Source: Candidatus Dormibacterales bacterium
Lineage (GTDB): Bacteria > Chloroflexota > Dormibacteria > Dormibacterales > Dormibacteraceae
Reading direction: 5' to 3'
DNA length: 64,000 bases
NCBI GenBank assembly: GCA_044450465.1
Contig: JBIOJB010000001.1
Coordinates: 5,815-69,814, forward strand
Shown here: positions 8,645 through 59,796 of the stretch, piece by piece
How positions within the stretch are numbered: position 1 is the first letter of the stretch
Layout of the letters: every line of letters starts with the position of its first letter
Program-made: the position numbers and the translations under genes
Notes under the pieces: model-generated
What the model saw: the letters and a program-made list of their open reading frames with translations, nothing else
Database searches by the model: none
Told to the model about the DNA's origin: nothing

Positions 8645-9316
8645 TCAGGGGATCTGCGGAGGGGCCGCCGGCTGTGCCCTTGTCTCGCGCTCACGGGCGA
8701 TGCGCTGGGCTCGGCCCTGCAGCCAGACCTCACGGATGCGCTGGAGGGCGGTCACGTTTGTCACGAGGGCAAGCAGGAACACGATGGCGTACAGCCACGC
8801 GCCGCCGAAGATCAGCCCGACCACGATCGCGACCACCCGCTCGGGTCGGGCGAATAATCCCGACTCGCACGTGAAGCCGAGGCTCTGCGCCCGGGCGCGG
8901 ACGTAGCTGACCAGGAACGAACCGGCGAGTGCGGCCAGCGTGGCGAGCACGAGCCAGCGCTGCATCGAGCCGCCCACCGAGACGAAATAGGTCGCGAGCC
9001 CCAGGTAGATGGCGCCTTCCGAATACCGGTCGAGCGTCGAGTCCAGAAACGCGCCGTACGGGTAGCTCGCGTGGGTTGTGCGGGCGAGGGCGCCGTCCAG
9101 GATGTCGCAGGTGCCGGCGACGACAAGCACCACGCCCGCGGTGAGCAGATGGCCGAATGCGATCAGGCCCGCCGCCAGGAACGTCAGCAGCAGACCGACC
9201 ACCGAAACCTGATTGGGCGTGAGCGGCACGCGCCCGATCGTCGACATCAAGCCTTCGGCGCGTCGCCGGACCCAGGCTTCAAACCGCGTTGTGAACATTT
9301 CGAACCCCTCTTGCAT
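8645..9316 (-). CDS. CDP-alcohol phosphatidyltransferase (phosphatidylinositol-phosphate synthase-like)
   Basis: Perfect DG(x2)AR(x8)G(x3)D(x3)D motif in DILDGALARTTHASYPYGAFLDSTLD. Multi-TM protein. It sits next to pimA, acyltransferases and ino1. Confidence 0.85.
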   Translation of the reverse strand: MQEGFEMFTTRFEAWVRRRAEGLMSTIGRVPLTPNQVSVVGLLLTFLAAGLIAFGHLLTAGVVLVVAGTCDILDGALARTTHASYPYGAFLDSTLDRYSEGAIYLGLATYFVSVGGSMQRWLVLATLAALAGSFLVSYVRARAQSLGFTCESGLFARPERVVAIVVGLIFGGAWLYAIVFLLALVTNVTALQRIREVWLQGRAQRIARERETRAQPAAPPQIP

Positions 9317-10448
9317 TTCCGGCCTGCGTCGCGGCTTCCTCCCGCGCTTCCTCGTAGACCTCGACGATCTCCGACGCGACCCGGTCCCAGGAGTACCGAT
9401 TGGCCCGCTCGTGTGCCTTCGCGCCGAGGCGCCGCCTCAATTCGGCATCCCTGGCGAGGATGACCAGCGCGGACCCAAGCTCGCGCCAGCGCTTGGGTTG
9501 CACGGCGATGCTGTCGCTTCCAGGCTCGAGCACGGACATGTAGCCCGGGACCTCGGTGGCCACCACTGGCAGCCCCGAGGCCATGGCCTCCAGCAGAACG
9601 ATCCCAAAGCTCTCCGCACCCGTGGCGGGGGCGCAGAAGATGTCTGCGCTCGCGAAATAGCGAGGCTTGACGGACTCAGGAACGAAACCGGCGAGCACAA
9701 CATTGCGCACTCGGTGCCTTCCGATCCAGTTCTCGACGTTGCTGCGAAGCGGGCCGTGGCCGACGATGATCAGCCGTGTGCGGGGCTCGCGTTCCTGCAG
9801 GTATCGAAAGGCCCGCAGGAGGTCGCCGAGTCCTTTGCGCTTCTCCAACCGGCCGACGAAAAGGATGTTGACGAACTCGTCTCGAAGGTGACGGATGGGC
9901 GACAGGCCAGGTTTGTAGACATCGAGATCGATGCCGTTGGGTACTACTCGGATCGGGAACTTGGGGAAGTAGCGGCTCACGAATGCGCGGGCAGGCTCGC
10001 TCACGGCGACCGCACGGTGGAGGCGCCTGAAGTAGGGCTTGAGGAGCGAGCGGCCGTAGTAGTAGCCGAGATTGGAGCGTGCGAAAGCGTGGAAGGTGCC
10101 AACGTTGGCGGCGGTCGACATGCGCAGGAGCGTCATGGGCAGCGCGGGCATGAGCGGTTCGTGGAAGTGAAGGACGTCGAAGTGCTCGCTGCCGATGATC
10201 CCCCTCACATGGTTGCTCAGGTGAAAGCTCAGTCCGATGCGCGCGACCGAGTCGTTCACCGGCACCGCGATGGGCCGGCCAATCCGGTAGAAACGGGCGG
10301 CGTCAAACTCGAGGTCCTTCTTGCTCGACGGCGCGAAGATGCGAGTGTCGTGGCCTAGGCGCTGCAGCTGGACGGCGAGGTGCCGCACGTGGTCATTCAC
10401 GCCGCCCGGCGAGGCGAAGTCATACGGCGACACCAGCCCGACCCTCAT
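9279..10448 (-). CDS. pimA: GT4 phosphatidylinositol alpha-mannosyltransferase-like glycosyltransferase
   Basis: Start re-set to ATG 10448 (MRVGLVSPYDFASPGGVNDHVRHLA), which closely resembles the mycobacterial PimA N-terminus. The ORF-track 512-aa version carries a 123-aa Arg/Ser-rich artefactual extension. Confidence 0.85.
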   Translation of the reverse strand: MRVGLVSPYDFASPGGVNDHVRHLAVQLQRLGHDTRIFAPSSKKDLEFDAARFYRIGRPIAVPVNDSVARIGLSFHLSNHVRGIIGSEHFDVLHFHEPLMPALPMTLLRMSTAANVGTFHAFARSNLGYYYGRSLLKPYFRRLHRAVAVSEPARAFVSRYFPKFPIRVVPNGIDLDVYKPGLSPIRHLRDEFVNILFVGRLEKRKGLGDLLRAFRYLQEREPRTRLIIVGHGPLRSNVENWIGRHRVRNVVLAGFVPESVKPRYFASADIFCAPATGAESFGIVLLEAMASGLPVVATEVPGYMSVLEPGSDSIAVQPKRWRELGSALVILARDAELRRRLGAKAHERANRYSWDRVASEIVEVYEEAREEAATQAGNARGVRNVHNAV

Positions 10449-10594
10449 AGGCGTGGGGGGCCCGACACCCTGCGTCGCGGGTAGGCCGGATTCATTCCGG
10501 CCGTCACCCCGGCGTGAACCCTCCAACCGCCTCCCATTCGCGGCCAGGAGAGGGGGGTTCCGTGGGGGGATCCTGATACCCCCGCGCCCGTCAC
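10445..10594 (-). repeat. Palindromic junction element copy A: 50-codon bridging mini-ORF between the acyltransferase and pimA
   Basis: GTG 10594-10592 overlaps the upstream TGA. TGA 10447-10445 overlaps the pimA ATG. Hairpins lie at 10564-10583 (GGGGGGATC/GATACCCCC) and 10484-10502 (GGCCGGA/TCCGGCC). The core is homologous to 56788-56826. Confidence 0.8.
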
Positions 10595-11457
10595 TTTGAG
10601 CCAGGCCAGACCCGGTGCGGCACGTGCCACTGCTCCGGGTGCTGTGAGATGAACCGCTCGATGTGCCCGAGGAGCTCCTGGGTGGTGCGCACCTGGTCGG
10701 CCTTCGAATCGCCCGTCGACTTGGGGATGACAAGCGGCGCGCCCTCGGCCAGGTATGTGTCGTCCGGCATCCTGTAAACGCAGACGGGAAAGAGGGGCGC
10801 TCCAGTGCGCAACGCAATGGCCGCGGGCCCCAGAGGAATGGGCGCCAGCTTTCCGAAAAAAGGCATCAGGTGACCGGTGCCGGTGATATCCCGATCGATC
10901 GCCGTAATAACAATCTCGTCGTCGCGAAGAGCCTGGAGCACCTTGCGGATACCGCCGTGGTCCAAGGTCAGGACGCTGATCCCAAGCCTGGCCCTGGTAT
11001 CGCGATACCACTCGAAAAGAGGTCTCGGCTCCACCTCCTCGGCAAAGACGCTGACCGGCGCCTGCGTCGCCGCCCAGATCGCCGCCGCCACCTCGTAGGA
11101 GCCCATGTGGCACGTCACGGCCATGACTCCCCTGTGCATCGCCTGCCCTTCGGCGAGGTACTCGAGGCCCTTCACCTTGAGAAGCGGCCTCATCTGTTCC
11201 ACGCGCATGCGCGGGAGGAGCATCAGGTCCGCATAGGCCTTGGCGTGGTTGTGAAAGTTGATCCAGGCCACGTGACGAAGAGAACGGTCGTCGAGGTCCG
11301 GCCGTGCCACCCTCAGGTTGAACTCCAGGCGTGGTCGAGCCAGCGGCGAGAACCAGTACGCGAGCCGCGCGGCCACCAGCGCTAGCGCGTAGGCCCAACT
11401 TCGAGGCAGCCTCACGGTTAGCGATTGAATCGCGGCGAACGCGCGCCAACGCCACAT
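10591..11457 (-). CDS. LpxL/HtrB-family lipid acyltransferase (PatA-like), copy 1
   Basis: Lauroyl-acyltransferase-family layout with HMGSYE (HxxxxE variant of the HxxxxD catalytic motif). Located in the PIM-type cluster. Confidence 0.75.
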   Translation of the reverse strand: MWRWRAFAAIQSLTVRLPRSWAYALALVAARLAYWFSPLARPRLEFNLRVARPDLDDRSLRHVAWINFHNHAKAYADLMLLPRMRVEQMRPLLKVKGLEYLAEGQAMHRGVMAVTCHMGSYEVAAAIWAATQAPVSVFAEEVEPRPLFEWYRDTRARLGISVLTLDHGGIRKVLQALRDDEIVITAIDRDITGTGHLMPFFGKLAPIPLGPAAIALRTGAPLFPVCVYRMPDDTYLAEGAPLVIPKSTGDSKADQVRTTQELLGHIERFISQHPEQWHVPHRVWPGSK

Positions 11458-31487: not shown

Positions 31488-31701
31488 CGCCGCGCATCCG
31501 GTCCCTTTGGCGCGCCAATCCAGCGGTGCCGGCTAGGCCAAGAAGGCACGGGCGGCTCAATCTCCCCGATGCCCGGCCCCCGGACCGGCCTGACTCATGA
31601 GTTTGGTAGCCGAGGTTGCCTTAGGCCGGATTGACTCGGGCAGAAACCCAGGCGTGCCACTGTCCAAACGACTGCGACCAGGTGTTACTCGGTGGGGGCA
31701 C

Positions 31702-31727
31702 CACGGGAGAGGCCTGCCTCCCCCGTG
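31702..31727 (-). terminator. 11-bp GC-rich hairpin immediately after the stop of the 31731..32291 gene
   Basis: The minus strand reads CACGGGGGAGG-CAGG-CCTCTCCCGTG (one G-U pair). There is no U-tract on the minus strand. On the plus strand the same hairpin is followed by CTTTT. Confidence 0.45.
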
Positions 31728-31730
31728 CTT

Positions 31731-32291
31731 TTAGAGCCTTTCCAGGACCAGGGTGCGTTTGGACGCGTATTCGTGGTCGGAGAGCAGGCCGTCGCGATGC
31801 AGTTTCGTGAGCATCTCCATCTCCTCGAGCACGTCCAGCAGCGGTGCCATCGTGCGTCGGGCCAGGTATGCCTCCGAGGCGCCGCCCGCCTCCTCGCCGC
31901 GCGCGTCGAACTCGCGGATGAAGAACAGCGCTTTCACGGCCGAGAACGGAATCCCCAGCTTTCGCACCGGGCTGTCCGAGTGCTCGGCGTGCAGATGCAG
32001 CACGACTCCGTATCGATGCCTTTCCAACGTTCCATCGAGGTGGCCGCGAAGAACCTCACCGTCCAGGAAGCGGATGGCCACTTTTCGCGTCGGCGTTTCC
32101 GACGCAAGATCCGGATCGCGTGGCAACTCAACCCATTTGACCGCGGTCAACGGGATCCAGGCGGTCTCGTTGTTCTCGAGGCCGTCGGTGTCGTCCACCT
32201 CGACCAGGAAGTCGGGTTCGTCGAAATCAAGATCGCGAGCGTTGCCTTCCAGGGTCTCGTCATCGAAGAAGCGGACGACTACTTTGGCCAT
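31731..32291 (-). CDS. Hypothetical protein with C-terminal SHOCT-like motif
   Basis: Two similar N-terminal beta-rich segments (VVRFFDDETLEG / VAIRFLDGEVLRG). C-terminal LLDVLEEMEMLTKLHRDGLLSDHEYASKRTLVLERL resembles SHOCT. Confidence 0.55.
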   Translation of the reverse strand: MAKVVVRFFDDETLEGNARDLDFDEPDFLVEVDDTDGLENNETAWIPLTAVKWVELPRDPDLASETPTRKVAIRFLDGEVLRGHLDGTLERHRYGVVLHLHAEHSDSPVRKLGIPFSAVKALFFIREFDARGEEAGGASEAYLARRTMAPLLDVLEEMEMLTKLHRDGLLSDHEYASKRTLVLERL

Positions 32292-54274: not shown

Positions 54275-55251
54275 GCGGTGATCGAGACCCGATCGGCGCC
54301 GGCGGCATGGCGCACGACCTCGCCCACCACCGCGGCGCCCGAGGGCACGTCTTTGGGATCAACCGCGAGAACCATGCCGAGCCCCATGTTGAAGGTGGCG
54401 TACATCTCGTCGTCGGCGATGCGCCCTCGCCGCCGGATCAGCTCGAAGATGGGCGGGGTACGCCACGTCCCGCGTCGAAATCTCGCGCCCAGGCCCTCCG
54501 GCAGCATTCGTGGAACGTTGCCGGTGATCCCGCCGCCCGTCACGTGCGCGGCTCCCTTCCACGTGATGCGGTTCAGGTCTTCGAGATACGAGCGGTGAGG
54601 GTCGAGCAGCACCTCGCCAAGCGGGCGGCCGAGCTCCGTGAAGACTCGCGTGAGGGGCACATCCTCGAACACCTTGCGCGCCAACGAGAACCCGTTGGTG
54701 TGGAGGCCGCTCGACGGCAGTCCCACAAGCACGTCCCCAACTTTGATCCGGCTCGGGTCGCCAGGACGCTCGACCAGGCCGACGATGAACCCTGCGAGGT
54801 CGTAATCGCCGAGTGCGTAGACGCCCGGCATCTCGGCCGTCTCGCCGCCGAGCAGGGCGCACCCGGCCTCCCGGCACGCCGATGTCATCCCTTCCATCAG
54901 CTGGGTGAAGACGTCGGGGTCGAGACGGCCGGTCGCGAAATAATCCAGGAAGAACAGCGGGCGCGCTCCCGCGGTGGCGATGTCGTTCACCGAGTGGTTG
55001 ACGAGATCGACCCCGATATCGTGATGCGAGCCGGCGGCGATGGCGACCTTGATCTTGGTGCCCACGCCGTCTGCGCTGGCTGCCAGGTGGCCACCGCCGG
55101 GTAGGGCGTAGAGGCCGGCGAACGGGCCGACGCCCACCGCGACCTCGCTACCATGCGTTGCTGCAATGAGCGGTTTGAGGCGTTCAAGCGCGCGCTCGTA
55201 GGCGGCTATGTCCACGCCGGCCGCGGCGTAGGAGGGACTCTCGCCGCTCAC
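54271..55251 (-). CDS. purM: Phosphoribosylformylglycinamidine cyclo-ligase (AIR synthetase)
   Basis: Start re-set to GTG 55251 (GTGA overlap with the purF stop). SYAAAGVDIAAYE N-terminus and GLHTNGFSL motif. Confidence 0.9.
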   Translation of the reverse strand: MSGESPSYAAAGVDIAAYERALERLKPLIAATHGSEVAVGVGPFAGLYALPGGGHLAASADGVGTKIKVAIAAGSHHDIGVDLVNHSVNDIATAGARPLFFLDYFATGRLDPDVFTQLMEGMTSACREAGCALLGGETAEMPGVYALGDYDLAGFIVGLVERPGDPSRIKVGDVLVGLPSSGLHTNGFSLARKVFEDVPLTRVFTELGRPLGEVLLDPHRSYLEDLNRITWKGAAHVTGGGITGNVPRMLPEGLGARFRRGTWRTPPIFELIRRRGRIADDEMYATFNMGLGMVLAVDPKDVPSGAAVVGEVVRHAAGADRVSITA

Positions 55252-56708
55252 GCCTTGGCTAGCTGTGGCGACGGAGGCTCGGCGACCGGGACGCCTTCCG
55301 GCTGCGGCTCGAACTGCATCTTGTCCATCACGAGCTGCTGCGGAACGGGCACCGGGTACGAGCCGTCGAAACAGGCGCGACAGAACTCCTGAGCCGTGCC
55401 CCGTCCGATGGCCCTCATCAGACCCGGTATCGAAAGATAGTGCAGGCTGTCGGCGCCAAGGTGAGCGCGAACCTCCTCGACGGTGCGGCCCGAAGCGATC
55501 AGCTCTTTCGTCGAGCCGATGTCGACTCCCATGAAGCACGGATAGCGCATGGGCGGGCTCGAGATGCGCATGTGGATCTCTCGGGCGCCCGCGGCGCGCA
55601 GTCGCTCGATGATCCGCCCTGACGTGGTGCCGCGCACGATCGAATCGTCGACGGCGATGATCCGCTTGCCCCTGATCGACCGCGGAAGGGGATTGAGCTT
55701 CAGCATCACTCCCGCCTCGCGCAGCGATTGGTCGGGCTGGATGAAGGTGCGGTTGATGTAACGGCTCTTCATCAGGGCCTCGCGAAACGGAATGCCGGAC
55801 GCCTCGGCGTAGCCGATGGCGGCGGGGGTGCCCGAGTCCGGGAACGCGACCACCATGTCAGCCTCGACAGGCGCTTCCTTGGCGAGCTCGTGGCCCATTC
55901 GGATCCGGGCGTCTTCGAGCTCGCAGTTTTTGAGGATCGAGTCCGGCCGGGCGAAATAGATGAACTCGAAGACGCACATGGCGTGCTTGTTCGAGGTCAT
56001 GAAGGTCAGGCTGTGAACGCCGTGCTCGTCCATCACCACCATCTCCCCCGGCTGGACCTCCCGGACGAAGTTCGCGCGCACCGTGTCCAGCGCGCAGGTC
56101 TCCGAGGCGATGACATGCGCCGGCTGGCCTGGGAGGGGTATGAAGCCGATGCACAGCGGCCGGAACCCGAACGGATCGCGAAGCGCGATCAGCTGGGTCG
56201 GCGTGATGATCCCGCACGAATAGGCGCCAACGACACGGGCGAAGGTGCGGCGGATGACGTCCTCCCACGTGCGGCCGTGGGTGTGCTCGATGAGCCTGGC
56301 CATGACCTCGGTGTCGAGGGCGGTGTCGAAGGTCGCGCCCTCGTCCTTCAGCTGGGCGCGAAGAGCCTCTGCGTTCAACAGGTTTCCGTTGTGAGCGATC
56401 GCGCCGGGTCCCAGGGTGGGATGGTGAAAGGGGAGCGGGTGCGCGTTCTCGGCCCGGCTGGCGCCGGTGGTCGAGTAGCGCGTGTGACCCAGCGCAAGGA
56501 TCGAGCCCTCGCCCAGGTCCCTGATCTGATCGGGCGAGAAGACGTGGGCGACGAGGCCCATGTCGCGGTGCACGCGCACGGAAGTCCCATCCGAGACCGC
56601 GATGCCGGCCGACTCCTGACCCCGGTGCTGCAGCGCGAAAAGGCCGAAGTAGGTGAGGTTGGCGACATCCACACCCTGCTTGGAGCAGATGCCGAAAACC
56701 CCACACAA
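55248..56708 (-). CDS. purF: Amidophosphoribosyltransferase
   Basis: The TTG start is followed directly by the Ntn nucleophile Cys (MCGVFGICSK). The PRPP motif is present (IIAVDDSIVRGTT). 486 aa. Confidence 0.92.
   Translation of the reverse strand: MCGVFGICSKQGVDVANLTYFGLFALQHRGQESAGIAVSDGTSVRVHRDMGLVAHVFSPDQIRDLGEGSILALGHTRYSTTGASRAENAHPLPFHHPTLGPGAIAHNGNLLNAEALRAQLKDEGATFDTALDTEVMARLIEHTHGRTWEDVIRRTFARVVGAYSCGIITPTQLIALRDPFGFRPLCIGFIPLPGQPAHVIASETCALDTVRANFVREVQPGEMVVMDEHGVHSLTFMTSNKHAMCVFEFIYFARPDSILKNCELEDARIRMGHELAKEAPVEADMVVAFPDSGTPAAIGYAEASGIPFREALMKSRYINRTFIQPDQSLREAGVMLKLNPLPRSIRGKRIIAVDDSIVRGTTSGRIIERLRAAGAREIHMRISSPPMRYPCFMGVDIGSTKELIASGRTVEEVRAHLGADSLHYLSIPGLMRAIGRGTAQEFCRACFDGSYPVPVPQQLVMDKMQFEPQPEGVPVAEPPSPQLAKA
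56668..56707 (-). repeat. Direct repeat copy 1 (purF codons 1-13, functional copy)
   Basis: The 40-nt sequence tccacaccctgcttggagcagatgccgaaaaccccacaca is identical to 56829-56868. Confidence 0.95.
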
Positions 56709-56828
56709 GGTCAGTCGATGCCCCTGGAGTCGCCCGGTTCACCCGGGCGACCCCCCGGACTCACTTTCTGTGTCGACGACGCAAACCAGAGGGGGGTCCG
56801 TGGGGGGATCCTGATCCCCCCGTGCCTT
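56708..56828 (-). repeat. 121-nt hairpin-rich insert between the two purF-start repeats (palindromic element copy B)
   Basis: Hairpins GGGGGGATC/GATCCCCCC (56802-56821) and TCGCCCGG/CCGGGCGA (56730-56750). The core at 56788-56826 is about 38/41 identical to 10549-10588. Confidence 0.85.
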
Positions 56829-56868
56829 TCCACACCCTGCTTGGAGCAGATGCCGAAAACCCCACACA
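56829..56868 (-). repeat. Direct repeat copy 2 (decoy purF start, heads a 52-aa mini-ORF 56869..56711)
   Basis: Identical 40-mer. It keeps GTG-TGT (Met-Cys) 22 nt downstream of the purL stop but reads into the insert and stops at TGA 56713-56711. Confidence 0.9.
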
Positions 56869-56891
56869 CGTCTAGCCGGACACCTTGTGCA

Positions 56892-59075
56892 CTAGCCCAC
56901 CGCTCCTTCCCAAGCTTGACGCATCTCGGAGAGGGAGAGCTTTAACTGACCCTCCAACTCCAGGAAGCCGCCGCCCGCGAGGCCGAGAAGCGAGATCTCG
57001 ACATTGTTGCGGCGGGCCAGTGACTGAACCTCCGGCATCGCTCGGGACGGCACGCTCACGATGAAGCGGCTCGGCGACTCCCCGAAAAACGCGGCGTCGA
57101 GGCGGAGCGGCGCCTCCGGCCTGAGGCCTGGGCACCGAACGCCGATCCCACCGAGCATGCAGCATTCCGCCAGCGCGACGAGCATGCCCCCCTCGGCGCA
57201 GTCGTGGGCCGAATGCAGGAATCCGTGCTGGGCGGCAGCGAGCACCAGCCGACCGACGGCCCTTTCGCGCGACAGCTCCAGCGCGGGCGGCGGTCCCTGG
57301 ACCGTGCCGTGCTCGACCTTCATGTACTCGCTGCCGCCGAGATCGTTGTGGCTCGAGCCGACGAGGAGGACGAAATCGCCCTCGGCGCGAAATCCCGCGC
57401 CGAGCGCCCGGTGATAGTCGTCGATCAACCCGATCATGCCGACCACCGGTGTCGGAAAGATGGCTACGTCACCGGGCGATTCGTTGTACAGGCTGACGTT
57501 TCCGCTCACGATCGGCACCTCGAGCGTCCTGCACGCCTGCGCCAGCCCTTGGATCGTCTCCTCGAGCTCCCAGTACACCTCCGGCCTGTCCGGGTTGGCC
57601 AGGTTCAGACAATCCGTGACGGCGAGTGGCCTGGCGCCGGTCGCGATGATGTTGCGCGCGGCTTCAGCCACCGCGAGCTGGGCCCCGGCGTGGGGGTCGA
57701 GATGGCAGTAGCGCGAGTTGCAGTCGGTCGTCATCGCAAGCCCCAGCTGCGTGCCCTTGACCCTCAGCACCGCCGCGTCGCCGCCAGGCGCGACGACGGT
57801 GGCGTCGCCGACCATGTGGTCGTAGCGCCGAAAGACGCCCCTTTTGCTGCTGAGGTTCGGGCTCGCGAGCAGGCGCAGAAGCGTGGCGCCCGGATCCACG
57901 ATGGGCGGGACGGAAGTGACGTCAAGCCGGGCCGCGACGGCCCGGGCGACACCGACCAGACGCCGTGGAGGCGCGCCGTCCGTGAGCAGCTGTACGGGCA
58001 GCCTGGCCACTTCGTCCCAGCCGTCGAAGACAGTCAGATGGCCGTCGTCGGTCACCTCGCCGATCACGGCCGAAGCCAGGTCCCAGGTGCCGAAGATCAG
58101 CTCGACCTCCTCCTCGCGGCCGCGCTCAACGACGACGAGCATCCGCTCCTGCGACTCCGAGAGCATCACCTCGTAAGGCGTCATCGCCCGTTCGCGGCGC
58201 GGCACCTTCGCCACATCGATCCGCGCGCCCGCGCCCGGGACGCGCGCGGCGCACTCCGCCACCGATGAGGTGAGGCCGGCCGCACCGAGGTCCTGGAGCG
58301 CAAGCACCGCGGTCGTCTGCTGGAGATCCATGCAGGCTTCGAGCAGGCATTTCTCGAGGAACGGGTTGCCCACCTGGACCGCCGGCCGGCGCTCGGCGCT
58401 CGTCTCGTCGAGCTCGAGCGAAGCGAACGAAGCGCCGTGGATCCCGTCGCGCCCGGTGTCAGCGCCAACCAGCAGAATGCTGTTGCCCGTTCCTTCAGCT
58501 CGGGCTCGCATCAGGCGATCGACCCGCACCAGACCGACGCACATCGCGTTGACGAGCGGGTTCTGCGCGTAGCACTCGTCGAAATAGACCTCGCCGCCAA
58601 CGGTCGGGATGCCGATGCAGTTGCCATAGCCACCGATCCCAGCGACCACGCCTTCGAAATGATGGCTCGAGCCGGGGAGGGGTCCAAAACGAAGCGAGTC
58701 GAGCAGCGCGACCGGCCGAGCGCCCATCGCCACGACGTCACGGATGATTCCCCCGACCCCGGTGGCTGCGCCTTGAAACGGCTCTATCGCCGAGGGGTGG
58801 TTGTGCGACTCGATCTTGAACACCGCGGCCCAGCCCTCGCCGATCGTGACGGCACCCGCATTCTCGCCGGGGCCCTGCAGAACGGCGGGTCCGGTAGACG
58901 GAAGGCGGCGGAGCAGGGCTCGCGAGCTCTTGTATGAGCAGTGCTCGGACCAGAGGACTCCAAGCATTCCCAGCTCCACCTCGTTGGGGGCGCGCTTGAG
59001 CCGCTCGACTATGACCCTGTATTCGTCGGAAGTGAGGGCGACCTCACGAAGCCGCCGCTCGTCGATCACCTCCAC
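56892..59075 (-). CDS. purL: Phosphoribosylformylglycinamidine synthase subunit PurL
   Basis: [11 protein letters not shown] motif and a ~730-aa FGAM synthase II layout. The start is ambiguous. GTG 59075 leaves a 16-nt spacer after purQ. ATG 59150 or 59159 would overlap purQ by about 60 nt. Confidence 0.9.
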
Positions 59076-59091
59076 GCTTTTCGCGCTCGGC

Positions 59092-59796
59092 TCAAGAGAC
59101 CAGGACCTTGAGCGCGCTCTCCGCGACCGACTGGAACAGTTTCCGGCCATCCGTGCCACCCAGCTCCGGTTCCGAGCATCGCTCCGGGTGAGGCATCATC
59201 CCCAGCACGTTGCCCCGGGCGTTCACGATTCCCGCGATGTTGTGGAGTGAGCCGTTTGGGTTGGCGGCCTGCGTGACGCGGCCTGATGAATCGCAGTAGC
59301 GGAACACGACCTGGCCGCGCTGCTCAAGCTTTGAAAGCGTCGCGGGATCGGCGAAGTAATTCCCTTCACCGTGCGAGATGGGAATCCGCAGCACCTCGTG
59401 CTCATCGCATTTAGAGGTGAATGCGAGGTCGGTTCTCTCCACGGCAAGGTGGGTCCACTCACAGCGAAACTCCAGCGAGGCGTTGCGAAGGAGCGCACCT
59501 GGCAGCAGTCCCGCTTCGCAGAGAATCTGAAATCCGTTGCAGATCCCCCAGACCAGACCGCCCCGGTCGGCGAACTCGCTGATCCGCTCCATCACCGGGG
59601 CGAAGCGAGCGATCGCTCCGGTGCGCAGGTAATCGCCGTAAGCGAAACCGCCGGGCAGGATGATGCAGTCGCAGCCTTTGATGTCGGCATCCTTGTGCCA
59701 GAGGTACCGGAGCTCGGCGCCCAGGACCTGGTTGACGACCCAGCCGCAGTCGCGGTCGGACCACGTGCCCGGGAAGACTACTACGCCGAACCTCAT
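59092..59796 (-). CDS. purQ: Phosphoribosylformylglycinamidine synthase glutaminase subunit
   Basis: Start re-set to ATG 59796 ([16 protein letters not shown]). GICNGFQIL catalytic Cys motif and HPER near the C-terminus. Confidence 0.9.

Follow-up and report, generated by a model that had tools for sequence, protein, structure and literature searches.

The subject of this analysis is a gene whose beginning is present twice. In a 64,000-nucleotide stretch of the genome of a Candidatus Dormibacterales bacterium (GenBank assembly GCA_044450465.1, contig JBIOJB010000001.1, positions 5,815 to 69,814 of the forward strand; hereafter "the window", 66% G+C), the head of purF, which encodes amidophosphoribosyltransferase, flanks both sides of an insert that stands between the gene and its upstream neighbor, purL. 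Judged by its sequence, the insert is a copy of a dispersed intercistronic repeat family found across the Dormibacterota, here designated E. The account that we regard as probable, while leaving appreciable room for others, is that E is a tolerated intercistronic repeat, that purF is reached by termination and reinitiation at the end of a short "relay" open reading frame (ORF) running through the insert, and that the repeated gene head, 40 nucleotides (nt) long, arose by duplication of a unit or by templated insertion.

Anatomy of the purL-purF junction

The direct repeat (TCCACACCCTGCTTGGAGCAGATGCCGAAAACCCCACACA) corresponds to nt 2-41 of purF; its two copies match at 40 of 40 positions with a spacing of 161 nt, and they are the sole long direct repeat within positions 56000-57500 (coordinates of all features are collected in Table 1). 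The proximal copy belongs to the functional gene. The distal copy, together with G56869, retains the original GTG start and codons 1-13, and is now the head of a mini-ORF of 52 codons in which these 13 purF codons are fused in frame to the insert. The mini-ORF (predicted peptide VCGVFGICSKQGVERHGGIRIPPRTPLWFASSTQKVSPGGRPGEPGDSRGID) opens at GTG 56869-56867 and closes at TGA 56713-56711, 2 nt before the TTG that now starts purF. Base 56708 is not the same in both repeat copies, and the first base (T) of this TTG must therefore come from the insert side: the start codon has been rebuilt at the junction. The duplication with its 161-nt period, the 121-nt insert with two hairpins, the mini-ORF running from the old GTG, and the rebuilt start had all been described in an initial annotation of the window, and all are borne out by the sequence. 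PurF of the window is ~90% identical to PurF of Candidatus Dormibacterota metagenome-assembled genomes (MAGs), and its nearest homologues all begin M/V-CGVFG.

On the coding strand the insert reads 5'-AAGGCAC, hairpin B, ACGGACCCCCC, a variable region, hairpin A, and a tail. A scan of positions 56400-57100 found neither an intrinsic terminator (GC hairpin and T run) nor σ70-type -35/-10 hexamers, and an Rfam search of positions 55000-58500 returned nothing credible: its two weak, chance-level matches (E value > 5) both lie outside the insert. In related loci the gene at the purL position has the Pfam domains AIRS, AIRS_C and FGAR-AT_linker. The spacer between purL and the (original) purF start is 22 nt in the window versus 0-7 nt in the relatives examined. 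(A side observation: lying 13-35 nt upstream of the original purF start, the conserved C-terminal W-E-G codons of purL, TGGGAAGGAG/GGGAAGGGG, also form what looks like a strong Shine-Dalgarno sequence; this was seen at window positions 56895-56925 and in loci L001, L017 and L030.)

Filled and empty junctions in relatives

Is the arrangement real, and is it an insertion? The window comes from a MAG, and mis-joined metagenome reads might in principle have created both the repeat and the insert. The same architecture recurs, with different sequence, in two independent assemblies from other projects. In the GenBank MAG contig JBAUTF010000029.1 (L017) the period is 161 nt, the insert 121 nt and the repeats are 39/40 identical; the distal start is GTG, the proximal start ATG, and a 52-codon mini-ORF ends with TAG 2 nt before that ATG. 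In the JGI metagenome contig Ga0185299_10010586 (L030) the period is 166 nt, the insert 126 nt and the repeats are 36/41 identical; a 54-codon mini-ORF ends with TGA 1 nt before the proximal ATG. Because of this recurrence the arrangement is real and not a mis-assembly; the insert belongs, moreover, to a family present in more than 20 assemblies, and an artefact is scarcely credible. It is also, on comparison with relatives, an insertion, because seven of these, retrieved through their PurF proteins (P0001, P0002, P0004, P0008, P0064, P0026 and P0003), have an empty junction with no insert, the purL stop and purF start overlapping or standing 0-4 nt apart.

The three filled junctions agree to the nucleotide at both ends of the insert, and TGT follows at both junctions in all three. 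These are not close relatives: 4-fold sites differ by ~50% between the three lineages, and the variable parts of their inserts are 0.59-0.63 identical, versus 0.58 when shuffled. In a neighbor-joining tree of PurF, filled (+) and empty (-) lineages interleave: (window+, (P0002-, (P0001-, L017+))), with L030+ outside. The interleaving means either several precise losses or several gains at exactly the same site; precise loss would be easy because the insert is bracketed by a 40-nt direct repeat.

These comparisons bear on two expectations that came with the initial annotation. Related purL-purF junctions were expected to lack the insert and to have a spacer of ~22 nt; the first holds in all seven, while their actual spacing does not fit the second. 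A second thought was that relatives sharing both the arrangement and a conserved mini-ORF peptide would point to an ancient leader peptide. The arrangement is indeed shared, by L017 and L030, and this implies that the event is old or that the site has been hit repeatedly; conservation of the peptide does not extend beyond that of the DNA motif. By these comparisons the purF insert is not a recent, single insertion, and it is not a conserved leader peptide either.

A dispersed intercistronic repeat family

Nor is the insert the orphan that it had appeared to be: copies of the family to which it belongs generally carry relay ORFs. Part of it recurs at window positions 10553-10584. A motif scan with CCGTGGGGGGATCCTGATNCCCCC, taking one genome per species, found 23 loci, mostly in Dormibacterota MAGs; nhmmer yields 38 matches in these 23 loci and three more in the window. 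Copies of E span ~120-135 nt and contain two GC-rich hairpins. Read along the strand of the flanking genes, they consist of a sharply defined 5' end, (A)AAGGCGC, usually placed directly after a stop codon (TAA, TGA or TAG); hairpin B (GGGGGGATC-AG-GATCCCCCC); ACGGACCCCCC; a variable stretch of ~50 nt; hairpin A, in the form GGCCGGAATRAATCCGGCC or a compensated GCCCGG/CCGGGC form; and a tail. The position of the 5' end after stop codons could be the outcome of either target preference or selection. E occupies junctions of housekeeping genes that run in the same direction, where it sits at the downstream gene's start codon: these junctions include purL/purF, patA-like/pimA-like, gdh/epimerase, RelA C-terminal region/MBL hydrolase and DUF6982/pdxS-like.

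The hairpins vary with compensation: hairpin A shows GC to CG covariation in 7 sequences, and compensated variants of hairpin B occur in copy L007_2 and at 31.7 kb in the window, where the two arms (GGGGGAGGC/GCCTCTCCC) differ in sequence from the usual ones and still pair. RNAalifold supports these two hairpins alone and finds no structure beyond them; both are palindromic and can thus form on either strand. Rfam has no match at an E value of ≤1 for the array of L016 or for the window copy at the pimA-like junction. A tRNA/tmRNA-like 3' end was considered for one subfamily, on the basis of hairpin A followed by CAGCTCCAC, and discarded: ARAGORN made no tRNA or tmRNA call and lent no support on the purF insert, and there is no matching 5' strand. 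There is also no sign of a fixed-length target-site duplication combined with terminal inverted repeats, and no consistent terminal inverted repeat among E copies; only the window copy at the pimA-like junction repeats its own 5' end in inverted form (GGGCCCCCCACGCCT, at its 3' end).

One subfamily ("TAA-type") starts TAA-AGGCGC, ends CAGCTCCAC / CAGCTCCACTGG and is closed in all three frames. It occupies the gdh → NAD-epimerase → acyltransferase junction in tandem, with one copy in L007, two in L013, three in L016 and at least two in L021. Tandem arrays in the family as a whole were found in L015, L013, L016, L021 and L026.

Further copies deserve brief mention. In L019 two E copies stand head-to-head in inverted orientation, 14 nt apart (1502-1745), the right-hand one flanked by an imperfect 14-nt direct repeat, GCGCCTT(C/T)TAATGG, containing a TAATG stop/start overlap; another copy in L019 (702-831) is preceded by a hairpin B fragment. 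The third, diverged window copy is followed by a 14-codon ORF (ATGAGTCAGG...). L009 (Dehalococcoidales) matches in the hairpin B motif only. Four E-bearing contigs, L008, L010, L026 and L028, have the label Verrucomicrobiia or Candidatus Sulfotelmatobacter; the E copy of L008 and that of L028 sit at a Dormibacterota-type patA/pimA junction, and all four are probably mis-binned Dormibacterota contigs. A literature search on Dormibacterota repeat elements returned nothing relevant.

Table 1. Features of the window and of TAA-type E arrays in related loci
Feature	Sequence	Position	Strand	Remarks
purL (FGAM synthase II), upstream gene	window	56892..59159	minus	stop TAG 56894-56892; from ORF list
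Spacer, purL stop to distal GTG, 22 nt	window	56870..56891	minus
Relay mini-ORF, 52 codons + TGA	window	56711..56869	minus	13 purF codons fused in frame to insert
Distal copy of purF nt 2-41	window	56829..56868	minus	with G56869, original GTG start and codons 1-13; now head of mini-ORF
Insert, 121 nt, member of family E	window	56708..56828	minus	nhmmer E value 2e-15
Hairpin B	window	56802..56821		GGGGGGATCCTGATCCCCCC; arms GGGGGGATC/GATCCCCCC; most conserved motif of the family
Hairpin A	window	56726..56754		GGAGTCGCCCGG/CCGGGCGACCCC; arms 56726-56737/56743-56754; deviates from family consensus GGCCGGAATRAATCCGGCC
Proximal copy of purF nt 2-41	window	56668..56707	minus	belongs to functional gene
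purF (amidophosphoribosyltransferase), 486 aa	window	55248..56708	minus	TTG start 56708-56706
Second E copy	window	10449..10590	minus	between patA-like acyltransferase gene (10591..11457) and pimA-like GT4 gene (9279..10448)
Bridging ORF of second E copy, 49 codons	window	10445..10594	minus	GTGA over upstream stop, ATGA over downstream start
Third, diverged E copy	window	31619..31730	minus	directly after TAA of DUF6982 gene (31731..32291), upstream of SOR/SNZ (pdxS-like) gene
TAA-type E array	L007	4518-4633
TAA-type E array	L013	4532-4773
TAA-type E array	L016	6226-6573
TAA-type E array	L021	3533-3719

Bridging reading frames at the patA-like/pimA-like junction

What E does to the reading of an operon is most clearly displayed at the junction between the patA-like (lipid-A-type acyltransferase) and pimA-like (GT4) genes. 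Nine forward single copies were examined there (L008, L011, L012, L014, L018, L022, L023, L027 and the window). Each of the nine contains exactly one bridging ORF, of 45-49 codons, whose start overlaps the upstream stop (ATGA, GTGA or TTGA) and whose TGA overlaps the downstream ATG. In L039 (1067-1201; also in L040) the element is inverted at this same junction, implying in-place inversion or re-insertion, and a 46-codon ORF with ATGA at both ends bridges the genes all the same, which brings the count to 10/10 single copies. (The inverted element of L039 is close in sequence to the window copy.) In L029 a chain of five overlapping ORFs crosses a truncated E and two full copies. The junction is empty in a more distant lineage (L035-L038), where it reads TGA-CCGCGCA-ATG.

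The bridging frame stays open despite frame-changing indels. Is it then the peptide that is selected? Variation in the bridging ORFs is flat across codon positions, and two copies, those of L018 and the window, read the conserved motif in another frame. A selected E peptide was rejected on these grounds; what is kept is the openness of the frame.

Relay mini-ORFs seem not to be called as genes. The NCBI MAG protein P0121 is 100% identical to the pimA-like product of the window and is annotated with 384 amino acids as against 389. An exact look-up gave no match for P0121 or for the window PurF with its TTG start, and public annotation of E-flanked starts may accordingly differ or be missing.

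How purF may be translated

The pattern suggests how E might be tolerated within operons: a short ORF would take over ribosomes at the upstream stop and release them at the downstream start. E may be no more than a selfish or neutral passenger that is put up with on these terms, though some regulatory role is possible. In the version proposed for purF, the relay would begin at the original GTG of purF with its ribosome-binding region. The ribosome would read the 13 duplicated purF codons, continue into E in frame, presumably melting the hairpins on its way, and stop 2 nt before the new TTG. There (or at the corresponding ATG of L017 and L030) the terminating ribosome would reinitiate, perhaps aided by G-rich sequence resembling a Shine-Dalgarno site that the E tail carries 9-13 nt upstream of the start. 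The product would be PurF with Cys directly after the initiator.

The features of the locus are compatible with such a relay. The mini-ORF retains the start of purF and the region upstream of it, and it uses the E frame that is open in most copies at the pimA-like junction. Its stop lies 1-2 nt before the purF start in all three lineages, which fits termination-reinitiation; by shuffling of the variable part, a stop placed so close beside the start has a 3-4% chance (0.03-0.04) in each lineage. Termination-reinitiation, already proposed in the initial annotation, is thus strengthened by geometry, and a relay of this kind is the most likely route to PurF. That the mini-ORF stop might be a duplicated purL stop was also considered; this fails because the frames disagree in the window and in L017. 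When the three mini-ORF peptides were aligned and the alignment was used to search protein databases, nothing matched.

Where the duplicated gene head comes from

A 40-nt direct repeat around a mobile-looking insert invites interpretation as a target-site duplication, unusual for a transposon in its length. That interpretation is doubtful, because an automated search found no flanking repeat above shuffled controls at the other single E copies; the duplication is probably not the footprint of a transposase. Better guides are found next to tandem copies at the pimA-like junction. In L024 (1360-1860), a 63-nt stretch of the pimA head stands on either side of an E copy and is fused to it in frame, the resulting ORF ending with ATGA at the true start; the 63-nt head repeat carries three synonymous differences and is accompanied by a 9-nt partial head. 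In L029 (3540-4000, reverse strand) an 11-nt pimA head occurs three times, together with two E copies and a truncated E, and in L015 (130-520, reverse strand) the second E copy has an internal deletion in hairpin B. One breakpoint of these pimA-head duplications is the sharp 5' end of E, the other a variable point in the gene. The 11- and 63-nt examples point to minisatellite-like duplication of a unit.

Two routes to the purF arrangement can be envisaged: 1) microhomology-mediated duplication of an [E + gene head] unit, with subsequent loss of the upstream E copy; 2) a one-step templated insertion. One can think of the resulting locus as a 161-nt minisatellite of 1.25 units, in which the gene heads would be kept alike by gain and loss of units or by gene conversion, and whose direct repeat would permit the precise loss that could give rise to the patchy distribution among relatives. 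The purF inserts of all three lineages have low scores against the family profile and depart from the otherwise near-invariant hairpin A consensus. Their divergence suggests age; old inserts with near-identical flanking repeats require homogenisation or recent re-insertion.

Alternative explanations

Several points weigh against this combination of tolerated repeat, relay and unit duplication. The case for translation of the mini-ORF, and for the dependence of purF on it, is one of comparative geometry. The duplicate-then-delete route is not demonstrated, because the interval from purL to the distal repeat holds no upstream E copy, nor anything that convincingly passes for what is left of one: the 22-nt spacer was tried as such a remnant and its alignment is not significant (p about 0.45; against the E tail of the window's pimA-like junction it matches at 11/13 positions, p=0.054). 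Differences between duplicated gene heads fall at third codon positions in 9/10 cases (5/5 in L030, 3/3 in L024, 1/1 in L029; the exception is one second-position difference in L017; binomial P = 3.6e-4), a bias that plain homogenisation does not predict. The neighboring genes, scanned in 8-kb loci, include no transposase or reverse transcriptase beside any E copy. Finally, identical junctions in three lineages, with repeats matching at 40/40, 39/40 and 36/41 positions, could equally be produced by repeated site-specific insertion. On that hypothesis E is an actively homing element that entered purF independently in the three lineages, at the same two positions, and each time produced a genuine target-site duplication of 40 nt, whether through cuts with a wide stagger or through target-primed copying. 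Homing would explain the nucleotide-identical junctions with TGT after each, the patchy presence on the PurF tree, and the (near-)identity of repeats within genomes whose 4-fold sites have diverged so far from one another. It is at odds with the want of flanking repeats around other single copies, with the same absence of transposase and reverse transcriptase genes, with the unequal lengths of the duplications in L024 and L029, and with the off-consensus hairpin A and poor profile scores of all three purF inserts, which are what old copies would show; on balance homing is unlikely.

Two further proposals assign a function to parts of the structure. According to the first, E is in the main a cis-regulatory RNA, acting as an attenuator or as an anti-Shine-Dalgarno switch that sets the translation of purF and pimA, with the duplicated head as part of its fold. 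This draws on the conservation of both hairpins and on the compensatory changes found in hairpin A and in some variants of hairpin B; the conserved ACCCCCCTCTC run could pair with G-rich Shine-Dalgarno or start regions. The proximal purF start is predicted to be base-paired in all three lineages and the 181-nt region folds better than its shuffles (z=-3.0), but the partners of the start differ from lineage to lineage, the statistics are weak, and two of the three lineage folds are no better than shuffles. The supported structure amounts to two palindromic hairpins formable on either strand, with no Rfam match; L039 has the element inverted at the patA-like/pimA-like junction, again with a bridging ORF, and many copies lie in untranslated arrays. 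A predominantly regulatory E is quite improbable. The third-position bias, for its part, directs attention to the distal gene head, for which two kinds of function can be imagined: the mini-ORF peptide matters in itself, or ribosomes bypass the insert so that the distal codons contribute to PurF. What tells against both is that the mini-ORF stop conserved beside the real start is well explained by a relay, and that the synonymous-only differences could stem from an allele of a related strain or from strain mixing in a metagenome. Bypass also has to contend with a gap of 161-166 nt, far longer than in the bypasses known to us, and with a repeat that neither a stop codon nor a take-off hairpin immediately follows, the ORF running on for 39 more codons. 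A functional head is accordingly very unlikely. The possible causes of the bias thus include selection on a decoy N-terminus along with the two sources in strain diversity just named. In the boldest version, E elements would take up the first 4-21 codons of the downstream gene and retain them as a translated copy, held to that gene's own amino-acid sequence, by means of a dedicated homing process that makes long duplications anchored at the start codon or because a decoy N-terminus is needed for expression (through nascent-chain or initiation-region mimicry, or through transfer of ribosomes between identical sequences); this is a long shot.

Implications

Should the relay account be right, it would provide a second, independent case, in an uncultured soil phylum, of repeats that survive in operons by way of a ribosome relay ORF; the solution found by the interspersed repetitive units of mycobacteria (MIRUs) would then be a general strategy rather than a mycobacterial curiosity. 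The practical consequences concern MAG annotation: at E junctions, gene callers will give genes such as purF a wrong start or score them as pseudogenes, and assemblies will break there. For translational coupling, the E junctions offer a natural test bed of termination-reinitiation through strong hairpins. For the study of bacterial repeats they pose an evolutionary puzzle: with synonymous sites saturated between genomes, two 40-nt copies separated by 121 nt nevertheless remain identical, and some lineages have lost the element by precise removal while others retain it. Gene-head duplication combined with concerted evolution is, to our knowledge, an undescribed variant.

Comparison with known systems

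The purF locus brings to mind the translational bypass in phage T4 gene 60, which, as we know it, also has matching sequence on either side of an intragenic gap. The gap at purF is three times longer, and no stop or take-off hairpin comes right after the repeat: codons match only through the repeat itself, whereupon the ORF continues for 39 codons with no adjacent stop. A stop/start pair 1-2 nt apart is the simpler device. Rickettsia palindromic elements are palindromic repeats inserted inside reading frames and translated in frame within the host protein; at E, in contrast, the host gene is regenerated downstream of the element and the translated piece is a separate mini-ORF. With miniature inverted-repeat transposable elements and with insertion sequences that make long target duplications (the IS1634/IS1549 group is an example), E has in common a small, non-autonomous insert within a direct repeat of its target, and the existence of filled and empty sites among relatives; it differs in having no general terminal inverted repeats, mostly no target-site duplication beyond chance, duplications of 11, 40 and 63 nt, and no identified partner transposase. 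REP/BIME and ERIC sequences of Proteobacteria are, like E, hairpin repeats of intercistronic or 3' operon regions, sometimes clustered, that lack coding capacity for a transposase. E is set apart by its defined two-hairpin architecture of ~125 nt and its conserved relay ORF, and no RAYT-like gene was seen near its copies in the 8-kb loci scanned. For REPINs with their RAYT, and for PATEs derived from IS200/IS605, one would look for an associated Y1 (HUH) transposase gene and for insertion beside a fixed short target that is not duplicated; the neighbors of E in these 8-kb loci include no transposase gene, and the usual place of its 5' end after a stop codon may reflect either such a target or selection.

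The closest parallel is with the MIRUs. These, as summarized in PMC12548453 (citing Supply et al. 1997), are mobile and insert at start codons, with an internal ORF coupled to the gene at -4 spacing. They share with E the character of short repeats located at gene junctions within operons, at start codons; a small ORF whose ends overlap the neighboring stop and start codons, with coupled translation (which for E is predicted from sequence); and tandem variation in copy number, together with a peptide of no evident function (PMC12548453). E lies between co-directional genes at the downstream start, and an ORF overlaps or abuts the neighboring stop and start at the pimA-like (NTGA...ATGA) and purF (1-2 nt) junctions. 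Copy number ranges from 1 to 3 at gdh/epimerase and is two at the pimA-like junction in L015, L024 and L029. The TAA-type subfamily departs from the MIRU pattern, with stops in all frames. E comes, besides, from another phylum, has two strong GC hairpins, and occurs in both orientations at one junction; it is also longer, at about 120-135 nt as against 40-100 nt for MIRUs. We know of no description in MIRUs of a duplicated downstream-gene head fused to the relay ORF, as at purF and in L024. Phylum, length and motifs make homology between MIRUs and E unlikely, the two having been compared by description. In function, E would resemble the MIRUs as an intercistronic coupling repeat; its sequence and its taxon would make it a family of its own.

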